From a virus: a stretch of DNA of 26,786 nucleotides. Location of the stretch: UHGV virus genome UHGV-0243142. One strand, 5' to 3'. A program made the position numbers and the translations under genes. Positions 2,977 to 4,371 of this stretch are shown one piece after another; within the stretch, counting starts at the first letter, position 1, and every line of letters starts with the position of its first letter. The notes beneath the pieces are model-generated. The model worked only from the letters and a program-made list of their open reading frames with translations, was not told where the DNA came from and made no database searches.

Positions 2977-3168
2977 ATGCTAAATCAGGAAGATATGACA
3001 GAAACCGCGAAGGCTGTTTTCAATGAGTTAAGCGATAAACCAGCAACGGCTGGGGAGATTGCACAGAATACCCACCTTAGCCGAGAACGTTGCCAGCTCA
3101 TACTCACACAGCTGGTGATGGCGGGTTTATCTGATTACCAGTTTGGATGTTATAAACGCCTCCAGTAA
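2977..3168 (+). CDS. Small winged-helix DNA-binding protein, PapI/FaeA-like
   Basis: 63 aa ORF (alternative start ATG 2995, preceded by AGGAAG). The segment VFNELSDKPATAGEIAQNTHLSRERCQLILTQLVMAGL parallels the PapI core [37 protein letters not shown] (from memory). Confidence 0.4.
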   Translation: MLNQEDMTETAKAVFNELSDKPATAGEIAQNTHLSRERCQLILTQLVMAGLSDYQFGCYKRLQ

Positions 3169-3318
3169 TGGGGGCATTCTGCTGTGGAAATGGGCGGCTG
3201 GTGGGTGTTAGCGCACCCGGCCAGCCATCAGCTCATGCTTTCAGGTCACAAGCTAACCAAGGCCCACTGCTTTAGCGCAAAAGCAACGTGAGCCTATCAG
3301 AGTTACGCTTACTGATCT

Positions 3319-4371
3319 ATGAAAAATACTGTAAAAATAAACAGTGTTGAATTAATCAACGCTGATAGCCTGCATTACGTCGCCACCCTCCCGGATAACT
3401 CTATTGATCTGATAGTTACGGATCCGCCGTACTTCAAAGTGAAGCCCAACGGCTGGGACAATCAATGGAAGGGGGACGAGGACTACTTACGCTGGCTTGA
3501 TAGCTGTCTGGCTGAGTATGCTCGCGTTCTTAAACCTGCTGGTAGCATTTACCTGTTCTGTGGTCACCGACTGGCCTCAGATATAGAGATTATGATGCGT
3601 GCCCGGTTCAACGTTTTGAATCACATAATTTGGGCAAAACCATCGGGCCGCTGGAATGGATGTAACAAAGAAAGCCTGCGTGCGTACTTTCCATCTACGG
3701 AACGGATTTTGTTTGCTGAGCACTATCTTGGGCCGTACACAGGTAAAGAGGATGTTTACGAAAGGAAAAGCACAGAGCTAAAGCAGCACATTATGACGCC
3801 ACTGATTGATTACTTCCGTAATGCCCGTGAATCACTGGGTGTCAGCTCGAAAGAAATAGCTGAGGCAACCGGAAAGAAAAACATGGCGTCACACTGGTTT
3901 GGTGCAAGCCAATGGCAACTACCAAATGAAGTGGACTATAGAAAGTTGCAGGAACTGTTCACGCGGATCGCTATCGATAAGCACATTGAGCAGAAACTTG
4001 AACATCCTCACCACCAGCTGGTAGCTACCTATCAGTCATTAAACCGCAAGTATTCAGAATTGCTGGAGGAATACAAAACCCTCCGGCGCTGCTTCTCTGT
4101 TTCCGCTCTTGTTCCGTATACCGACGTATGGACGCATAAGCCTGTTCAGTTTTATCCGGGCAAACATCCATGCGAAAAACCTGCCGACATGCTGAAGCAG
4201 ATCATTAGCGCCAGCAGCAGACCAGGGGATATCGTTGCTGATTTTTTTATGGGCTCTGGTTCAACTGTGAAAGCTGCAATAGAACTTGGCCGTCGGGCGA
4301 TCGGGGTAGAACTGGAAGCTGACAGATTTATTCAGACCACCGAAGAGGTGGAAAAACTGAGCAAAACATAA
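3319..4371 (+). CDS. DNA methyltransferase, beta-class amino-MTase (probably N6-adenine)
   Basis: Motif IV DLIVTDPPY lies near the N-terminus and motif I FFMGSGSTVKAAIELGRRAIGVE near the C-terminus, which is the beta-class order seen in CcrM/YhdJ/HinfI-type enzymes. The roughly 150 aa between them would be the target-recognition region. No restriction endonuclease partner is adjacent. Confidence 0.85.
   Translation: MKNTVKINSVELINADSLHYVATLPDNSIDLIVTDPPYFKVKPNGWDNQWKGDEDYLRWLDSCLAEYARVLKPAGSIYLFCGHRLASDIEIMMRARFNVLNHIIWAKPSGRWNGCNKESLRAYFPSTERILFAEHYLGPYTGKEDVYERKSTELKQHIMTPLIDYFRNARESLGVSSKEIAEATGKKNMASHWFGASQWQLPNEVDYRKLQELFTRIAIDKHIEQKLEHPHHQLVATYQSLNRKYSELLEEYKTLRRCFSVSALVPYTDVWTHKPVQFYPGKHPCEKPADMLKQIISASSRPGDIVADFFMGSGSTVKAAIELGRRAIGVELEADRFIQTTEEVEKLSKT

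Follow-up and report, generated by a model that had tools for sequence, protein, structure and literature searches.

A late-operon cassette of a small winged-helix gene, a conserved leader RNA and an M.EcoGII-type methylase gene as a probable anti-restriction module of lambdoid prophages

Genes of the cassette and their conservation

Here, we describe a cassette in the UHGV virus genome UHGV-0243142, which was analysed as one stretch of 26,786 nucleotides (nt) (hereafter, the window, to which all coordinates refer). The cassette occupies positions 2977-4371 of the + strand and consists of a gene for a small winged-helix protein, a structured leader RNA and a gene for an adenine methyltransferase (hereafter, methylase) (Table 1). 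The two open reading frames (ORFs) encode 63 and 350 amino acids (aa), both start with ATG, and both lie exactly where they had been placed in an earlier note made from the sequence alone. On its 5' side, the cassette is preceded by an Ant/KilAC gene, a DUF968/HNH gene and the gene for the late antiterminator Q; on its 3' side, two holin genes, a GH19 endolysin gene, Rz and terminase genes follow. These surroundings are those of a lambdoid late region, and the site proposed in the earlier note, i.e. between Q with its terminator and the lysis genes, is borne out by profile and terminator scans. The nearest genome found is the chromosome of Citrobacter murliniae, with 96% nt identity over 4.6 kb and a methylase that is 99% identical.

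The methylase matches the profile PF01555 (N6_N4_Mtase) with an E-value of 3.7e-44 over aa 29-336, and its motifs are in the order of the beta class, with DPPY (motif IV) at aa 35-38 and FMGSGS (motif I) at aa 310-315. Matches to the solved methyltransferases RsrI, CcrM and MboIIA are split and flank a central insert of ~170 aa. The profile match, the motif order and the solved relatives all agree with the earlier description of the enzyme as an orphan beta-class methyltransferase; it is an orphan because no endonuclease gene is nearby, and profile annotation of the neighbouring genes likewise revealed no endonuclease-like partner, as that note had said. In a BLASTP comparison, the methylase is 75% identical to M.EcoGII over 348 aa with 2 gaps (350 versus 349 aa), and its identity to Anc291 and Anc289, two reconstructed ancestors, is 82-85%. 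Within the target-recognition domain (aa 160-237), identity is 67% to M.EcoGII and 79-82% to the two ancestors. For these comparisons, we used the sequences in Supplementary Table S1 of PMC11551740, which were machine-read and contain a few reading errors. By identity, the methylase lies inside the bracket formed by M.EcoGII and its ancestors.

M.EcoGII methylates adenine in any context in double-stranded DNA, single-stranded DNA and RNA (PMC5778455). All ancestors that have been tested methylate DNA and RNA, and M.EcoGII, Anc291 and SUPREM do so without motif preference (PMC11551740). Based on the 75% identity to M.EcoGII and the 82-85% identity to active ancestors, we infer, on good grounds, that the window methylase methylates adenines in essentially any context. 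M.EcoGII and M.EcoGI, which are encoded by prophages of E. coli O104:H4 (PMC5778455, PMC11551740), share with it the common beta-class layout, a similar length, a prophage location and the lack of an endonuclease partner, and the identity to M.EcoGII spans the whole protein including the unusual helical target-recognition domain and the charged linker. However, the window methylase belongs to a different branch, and 25% of its residues, or 33% within the recognition domain, differ from those of M.EcoGII. The enzyme is, in other words, an additional member of a known and commercially used family. In phages of the Shiga toxin (Stx) type Stx2a, nearer relatives of M.EcoGII are likewise located after Q and accompanied by this small ORF and this leader. 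In the sections of the M.EcoGII publications consulted, the enzyme is treated in isolation and neither an upstream small gene nor a leader is mentioned.

The small ORF is conserved as a protein-coding gene. Across species, aa identity averages 76%, while third-codon-position identity at identical residues is near saturation at 52%; therefore, the small ORF is a real protein gene. In agreement with the fold assigned in the earlier note, the AlphaFold2 model of the protein, based on 28 homologues, is a canonical winged helix-turn-helix (wHTH) with an average of 91.9 in the predicted local distance difference test. Helix 3 carries the conserved motif RCQLILTQLVMAGL (CQLILTQL.MAGL), which is mostly invariant across the family, and two cysteines (C39 and C58) are widely kept without forming CxxC pairs. 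The family is narrow (303 clusters at 90% identity, 57 representatives at 50%), and all named matches are from Enterobacterales. Pfam gave only sub-threshold winged-helix matches (DprA_WH, 2.9e-4; TrmB, 1.2e-3), PHROGs assigns the protein to phrog_331 of unknown function, and the names used by NCBI are TrmB-family or DprA-like winged-helix protein. In Foldseek and PDB profile searches, the top structural matches are the N-terminal wHTH domains of the S-adenosylmethionine (SAM)-dependent O-methyltransferases DsyB, PigF, RedM and SibL, with the mRNA-binding domain of SelB close behind; all of these matches are weak, with E-values near 1e-3. Versions of the protein with longer N-termini (97-108 aa) in databases were rejected as upstream read-through, since the extensions are mutually unrelated and are closed by stop codons in the window.

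The earlier note had described the small protein as PapI/FaeA-like. PapI/FaeA proteins (PF04703) are also small stand-alone wHTH proteins of similar length. However, neither the protein itself (E ≤0.1) nor any of 17 family members (E ≤10) matched the PF04703 profile, in a search in which the HMMER filters drop most matches above about E 0.1. PapI is also absent from the match lists of the Foldseek and PDB profile searches, where the likeness does not go beyond a generic winged helix, and hhalign against an approximate PapI sequence gave a probability of 30% at 18% identity. Therefore, the PapI/FaeA label is unsupported. The two also differ in context: PapI/FaeA proteins are associated with a fimbrial operon, an Lrp/GATC switch region and a site-specific Dam-type methylation partner, none of which accompanies the small protein. 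At this locus, there is no fimbrial operon and there are no Lrp sites or paired GATC sites, and the neighbours are Q, terminators, the methylase and lysis genes.

The two genes are tightly linked, and the linkage is asymmetric. A search with the small protein gave 80 viral loci, of which 78 had enough sequence, and a methylase gene or its remnant lies downstream of the small gene in 77 of these, usually at a fixed distance of 147-154 nt. A search of viral contigs with the methylase also gave 80 loci; when three annotated loci from phages or prophages are added, the small ORF precedes the methylase in about 70 of the 83, mostly at a distance of 148-153 nt, and the rest carry other cargo. In a species-level set with one genome per species (80 loci, 78 usable; methylases 61-99% identical), the small ORF is present in 54 loci and missing in 24. 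The two genes stay together from Citrobacter through to Proteus, Providencia and Xenorhabdus, with methylase identity falling to only 61-65%, and the species-level loci also reach Photorhabdus. Comparing the 77/78 with the 54/78 loci, we conclude that the small gene needs the methylase module, while the methylase can lack the small gene. The pair is thus conserved as a unit, a point that the earlier note had proposed to check; this conservation is close to complete when seen from the small gene and partial when seen from the methylase. In the sampled phage genomes, the small gene was not found away from the methylase module.

The pair is also widespread in annotated genomes. Of 5,426 complete E. 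coli genomes, 2,195 (about 40%) contain the small ORF, which has 3,672 occurrences in them. The order Q, small ORF, ~150 nt, methylase and lysis genes is found in SfV (orf47/orf48), a Nissle 1917 prophage, mEp460 and vB_EcoM-720R4, and counting the window and eight annotated phages and prophages, the small gene lies directly upstream of a modification gene in the late operon. In phiP27 and an Stx2a phage (Stx2_95), tRNA genes and stx2 directly follow the methylase gene of the same pair, so the idea of the earlier note that this is the slot of stx is in line with what is found in these two phages. In phage records, the pair has been present since about 2002 as a hypothetical protein and a DNA methylase. 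In phiKO2, an N15-like phage with a linear-plasmid prophage, a late promoter and a terminator are annotated, and these are followed by the leader and the methylase gp52. Its gp51 (3503-3730 of its stretch), just upstream of the late promoter, is a distant relative of the small protein (hhalign probability 82%), and the association of small protein and methylase may predate the lambdoid arrangement.

Two further observations concern variation of the pair. A divergent 67-aa version of the small protein (a group of loci with 33 identical leaders; mEp460, 2310-2513) is 56% identical to the window's and shares with it only the first 11 residues and helix 3. Both this version and another with 86% identity go together with methylases that share about 81% identity with the window's, and the middle of the small gene seems to have been exchanged by recombination. 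Some prophages (five loci) have the small ORF and the leader together with a deleted, truncated or missing methylase gene, which fits decay of a costly gene in cryptic prophages.

A structured leader RNA upstream of the methylase gene

The earlier note placed the gene pair correctly and overlooked the most distinctive feature of the locus: the 150-nt spacer between the genes holds a conserved structured leader. Among 55 loci with methylases less than 90% identical, the mean identity is 81% for the leader, against 69% for the coding DNA of the methylase and 49% for the third positions of its codons; the leader is more conserved than either gene. RNAalifold applied to an ordinary, unfitted MAFFT alignment of 22 diverse leaders gave the helices P1 and P3 with 10 compensatory pairs. 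P2 was added by inspection, based on substitutions from AAG/CUU to GAG/CUC to GGA/UCC, and a covariance model (R1) was then built. In 67 of 86 sources, R1 has exactly one match at each locus; all matches are on the methylase strand, and all but a weak Aeromonas match end at the methylase start or no more than about 20 nt from it. In the alignment of R1 matches, which is fitted to the model so that its pairing numbers are inflated somewhat, 94.1% of cells are paired and 18 of 33 pairs are changed on both sides (110 cells); four of the nine pairs of P2 have changes on both sides. None of 500 shuffles reaches any of the observed measures, and with slid partners only 22-42% are paired.

The leader fold, which consists of five helices with compensatory changes (Table 1), includes the region upstream of the methylase start. 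P2, whose 3' strand stops one base short of the methylase AUG, pairs the 11 nt just upstream of it, and no Shine-Dalgarno sequence is visible before the AUG. Translation of the methylase should therefore be weak or conditional, as far as the modelled structure is a guide. The start region (-12 to +3) is paired with a predicted probability of about 0.67, and its opening would require about 6 kcal/mol.

Rfam 15 gave no match to the leader even at E ≤10 with permissive filters, and the literature searched contains no exact strings of the leader sequence. Among the complete E. coli genomes, 2,637 of 5,426 (49%) contain the leader, in up to eight copies, and an annotated DNA methyltransferase is directly adjacent to it in 39 of 40 sampled E. 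coli rows. As far as Rfam, annotations and the searched literature show, the strict dependence of the small gene on the methylase and the covarying leader RNA appear to be undescribed.

The small ORF itself ends in a hairpin, P0. The sequence of its stem varies between loci and is still complementary, with changes on both sides in five of its six pairs, and a hairpin is present at this place even at loci without the small ORF. In SfV and phiP27, the equivalent of P0 is followed by a U tract as in a full terminator; the U tract in the window is weak.

Several other explanations for the spacer were considered and rejected. A leader peptide would begin at the ATG in AAATGGGCGG, which opens a 33-codon frame in the window, but common variants stop early (TTGTAG or TTGACG...TAG) and coding is not conserved. 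No tRNA or known RNA was found in the spacer, and in the whole window there is no tRNA and no Rfam family at its gathering score. The anti-sRNAs AgvB and AsxR, which act against small RNAs (sRNAs), and the Pas sRNAs lie downstream of moron genes by the lysis genes and not in the leader. Finally, a pseudoknot between the P1b loop and the AACC junction is suggested in the window by the complementarity of UUAGC and GCUAA, which is lost in other variants.

The leader also varies at its taxonomic margins. At 16 Xenorhabdus and Photorhabdus loci, the small ORF is present together with a methylase 62-65% identical to the window's; here, the spacer is ~100 nt, keeps only the AAAUGGGCGGC start and a P1-like hairpin, and is not detected by R1. 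The Aeromonas phage PhAER-1 has a weak R1 match at 3734-3870 (34 bits, E 6.5e-5), ~130 nt upstream of a 52%-identical methylase. A GATC (Dam) site at 3314-3317, in the UGAUC of the P2 3' strand (TGATCT, 3312-3317), is nearly invariant across leaders, and in Proteus and Providencia the P2 5' strand (window 3244-3248) is GAUCA, yielding a second GATC. Because the GATC positions never covary, their conservation might reflect something beyond pairing.

Table 1. Coordinates of features at the cassette in the window UHGV-0243142
Feature	Position	Strand	Evidence or description
Late-gene antiterminator Q	2026-2736	+	PF06323 Phage_antiter_Q 2.3e-36, phrog_304 5.9e-72
tR'-like intrinsic terminator	2829-2856	+	8-bp GC-rich stem, then T run; terminator scan
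Small acidic winged-helix protein, 63 aa	2977-3168	+	pI 5.1, net charge about -2.4
Hairpin P0 (GCCTCCA-gtaa-TGGGGGC), small-ORF stop codon in loop	3158-3175	+	Stem complementarity kept between loci
Conserved structured leader RNA of methylase, ~135 nt	3185-3318	+	Covariance model R1, conservation
Leader helix P1a	3190-3194 / 3232-3236	+	
Leader helix P1b	3196-3205 / 3217-3226	+	
Leader helix P2	3244-3253 / 3307-3317	+	
Leader helix P3a	3260-3265 / 3290-3295	+	
Leader helix P3b	3268-3272 / 3281-3285	+	
Beta-class N6-adenine DNA (and RNA) methyltransferase, M.EcoGII family, without cognate endonuclease, 350 aa	3319-4371	+	PF01555, M.EcoGII identity
Terminator-like hairpin GATCATCAC...GTGGTGATC then ACCATTTTC	4373-4410 (hairpin 4373-4403 + T run)	+	Read from sequence

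Model for the function of the cassette and competing explanations

We suggest that the segment is probably a late-operon anti-restriction hypermethylation cassette that depends on Q, is translationally throttled and represents the lambdoid counterpart of the com-mom module of phage Mu. In lambdoid and N15-like prophages of Enterobacterales, this cassette would comprise the small winged-helix gene, the structured leader RNA and the M.EcoGII-type methylase gene. In this model, the cassette lies behind Q, pR', the tR'-like terminator and a second hairpin, P0, so that RNA polymerase would reach the methylase gene only after Q antitermination, at a late stage of lytic growth at which the cell is doomed anyway. 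A scan of 2600-4700 revealed no sigma-70-like promoter, and together with the two upstream terminators this lack of a promoter match suggests a methylase that would be silent in the lysogen. M.EcoGII itself is prophage-borne, unexpressed in the lysogen and harmful when expressed (PMC5778455, PMC12707154). Once made, the window methylase would, as judged by homology, add methyl groups to adenines in nearly any context. As a result, replicated phage DNA would be heavily N6-methylated before packaging, which would shield it against many restriction enzymes of Types I, II and III that it meets in the next host. Broad protection against restriction has been proposed for M.EcoGII by Murray et al. 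and in a review (PMC5778455, PMC12707154). Of the two functions offered in the earlier note, a methylation-based anti-restriction module is the likely one. The cassette is an ordinary and very common prophage module, in which the methylase would be made late and would probably shield phage DNA from restriction.

Because the enzyme is toxic, a second, post-transcriptional brake makes sense. We suggest that the leader fold, the structure of which is supported by covariation, would keep translation of the toxic enzyme low or conditional. The small protein would then bind nucleic acid in the leader region and modulate expression of the methylase, along the lines of Com in phage Mu. This is the least certain part of the model: we propose only tentatively that the small protein regulates methylase expression, and it is almost as likely to bind the methylase directly as a partner. 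The small protein is a module-dependent accessory because it is almost never found without leader and methylase; at the same time, it is dispensable because about 30% of species-level loci lack its gene. A possible further reading, though one that we do not regard as established, is that the leader belongs to an undescribed class of cis-regulatory RNAs that gates translation of the toxic methylase in answer to a trans signal, forming together with the winged-helix gene a non-homologous counterpart of com-mom. The trans signal could come from the winged-helix protein, from the methylase, itself a protein that binds and methylates RNA, or from a small molecule such as SAM or S-adenosylhomocysteine.

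Several points weigh against the model or against parts of it. The non-specificity of the methylase is deduced from 75% identity to M.EcoGII, and the recognition domain is only 67% identical. Hypermethylated DNA is a target for Type IV enzymes that depend on N6-methyladenine, and protection would not be universal. Many leader positions are invariant, P2a and parts of P3 rest on few informative changes, and the pairing numbers carry the inflation mentioned above. With its pI of 5.1, the small protein is acidic, an unusual property among nucleic-acid binders, and M.EcoGII is fully active alone in vitro (PMC11551740). Moreover, predicted masking of the start is equal whether the small gene is present at the locus (n=42) or missing (n=19) (Mann-Whitney p = 0.84). 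The small protein is therefore not needed to explain the leader and would be an optional modulator at most; an obligatory Com-like activator was rejected on the same ground, as leaders from loci that lack the small gene do not mask the start any less.

As an alternative, the small protein could bind the methylase as a subunit, inhibitor or adaptor and temper toxic off-target activity, e.g. on RNA or upon leaky expression, or redirect the choice of substrate. We regard this as somewhat doubtful, although the strict dependence of the small ORF on the methylase speaks for it. The acidic character that is awkward for a nucleic-acid binder would suit a protein facing the large positively charged nucleic-acid-binding surface of M.EcoGII (PMC11551740), and the closest solved relatives of the small protein are N-terminal wHTH domains built into SAM-dependent methyltransferases, but these structural matches are generic, with E-values of about 1e-3. 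There is also a precedent in PNB-2, the product of an upstream co-transcribed wHTH gene, which forms a 1:1 complex that alters substrate preference (PMC10810198). By contrast, M.EcoGII and its ancestors are fully active alone (PMC11551740), and the small gene is lacking in the same 30% or so of species-level loci. Also, the 86% and 56% versions of the small protein are paired with methylases that are each about 81% identical to the window's, with leaders differing little, which does not favor a direct fit between the two proteins.

It is quite improbable that the small ORF is an independent moron with a host-directed function, e.g. a transcription factor for host genes, that is a neighbour of the methylase only by way of a common insertion slot. 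The NCBI names TrmB-family or DprA-like winged-helix protein would be compatible with such a function, and the late-operon slot gathers unrelated cargo, with other morons upstream in Nissle 1917 and several loci. However, leader and methylase follow the small gene at all but one of the 78 viral loci, usually at the fixed spacing, this linkage holds across the genera in which the methylase has diverged to 61-65% identity, and the small gene has no other location in the sampled phage genomes. Even less credible is the heritable epigenetic (phase-variation) switch in the lysogen that the earlier note had built from a PapI/FaeA-type factor and the methylase: the small protein is a winged helix of about the size of PapI and one GATC (3314-3317) is conserved just upstream of the methylase AUG, but this GATC sits in an RNA helix strand with no array of Lrp-type sites, neither a FaeA/PapI profile match of the protein or its relatives nor a fimbrial or Lrp-type context was found, and a switch needs a site-specific methylase in the lysogen, while the methylase comes from a non-specific family that is silent in lysogens, lies behind two terminators in what would be a Q-dependent transcript and, on these grounds, could not write an inheritable site pattern.

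Returning to the anti-restriction cassette that we favor, its logic would be closely analogous to that of Mu com-mom. In both cases, a toxic, broadly acting adenine-modifying enzyme is made late only and is silent in the lysogen (for the window, as deduced above), a protein of ~60 aa of a nucleic-acid-binding type is encoded ahead of it in the operon, and mRNA structure hides the start of the enzyme gene (for the window, as predicted). Similarly, com-like genes precede those of the non-specific adenine methyltransferases Hin1523, Hia5 and Nme1821 of Mu-like prophages (PMC3299994, PMC6483171). The components differ, however. Mu Com is a four-cysteine zinc finger, whereas the window protein is a winged helix without such a motif; Mom is not a methyltransferase, whereas the window enzyme is; and Hia5 and Hin1523 are Dam-like (alpha-class), whereas the window enzyme is of the beta class. 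Unlike in obligatory com-type activation, the small gene of the window can be missing, and its absence does not change the predicted start masking.

A second system for comparison is M.EcoPA8orf6770P-PNB-2 of Stx2a phages (PMC10810198), in which a small winged-helix gene lies immediately upstream of, and is co-transcribed with, the gene of a phage "DNA adenine methylase". The PNB-2 pair is kept together in more than 83% of its carriers (PMC10810198). By contrast with the window enzyme, which is an N6_N4_Mtase whose relative M.EcoGII is active alone, the catalytic subunit of the PNB-2 system is of the MT-A70 family and is inactive alone; also, the PNB-2 pair lies near the other prophage end and is expressed in lysogens near stationary phase. 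PNB-2 and the window small protein were set side by side here by their descriptions. Because the methylase family and the part of the phage are different, we rejected the PNB-2 system as the identity of the cassette. An anti-phage defence system was likewise rejected: in PADLOC, the enzyme matched only generic models of Type II methyltransferases, and the small protein had no meaningful match.

In the laboratory, M.EcoGII is in wide use for chromatin footprinting and in RNA tools. To our knowledge, its natural biology, i.e. the timing of its synthesis, survival of the host and benefit to the phage, has hardly been studied. The data presented here place relatives of M.EcoGII in a fixed late-operon cassette, in some Shiga-toxin phages directly upstream of stx2, and tie them to a dedicated winged-helix protein. 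They also provide a candidate new RNA motif that is present in about 49% of complete E. coli genomes. If the leader is indeed a cis-regulatory RNA that gates methylase translation, its control would account for the harmless presence of M.EcoGII-type genes in about half of E. coli genomes. More generally, the cassette bears on how temperate phages of Enterobacterales cross restriction barriers and on how a dangerous enzyme is controlled.

Flanking transcription signals and lysis genes

Upstream of the cassette, the tR'-like terminator would, by analogy with the biology of lambdoid phages, end a short pR' transcript when Q is absent. Its strong hairpin with a T run was located at 2829-2850 by the terminator scan. 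The region 2790-2856 has several sub-threshold Rfam matches (Trp_leader with 30.6 bits, Leu_leader, isrK and RyhB), all centred on this terminator. The RNA from this region is probably the short pR'-tR' transcript, of the kind that acts as the sRNA StxS in Stx phages (PMC7547250).

Downstream of the methylase gene, the terminator-like hairpin at 4373-4410 closes the cassette ahead of the holin gene. It was not flagged by the simple terminator scan, which considers only loops of 3-8 nt; in the SfV and phiKO2 records, a terminator is annotated at the equivalent place. A second inverted repeat, AGGCACCGGG...CCCGGTTGCCT, lies at ~4413-4464 in the methylase-holin spacer (4372-4517), for which no Rfam match was found besides a chance match to a small nucleolar RNA. 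In prophages of enterohemorrhagic E. coli, convergent anti-sRNA genes of the AgvB/AsxR type are at the position of this spacer (PMC4104026).

The tandem holin-family genes at 4518-5172 overlap by 14 nt and encode a Phage_holin_8 protein (128 aa) and a Phage_holin_3_7 protein (93 aa) with three transmembrane segments; they may represent a holin/antiholin or a pinholin-type pair. Within Rz (5786-6313), an 84-aa ORF in another frame (6009-6263) begins with a lipoprotein signal and is likely the embedded Rz1 o-spanin. Between the lysis cassette and the terminase genes, a gene for a DUF6694 lipoprotein-like protein (6397-6741; 114 aa, signal LVAGC) marks a further moron-type slot.

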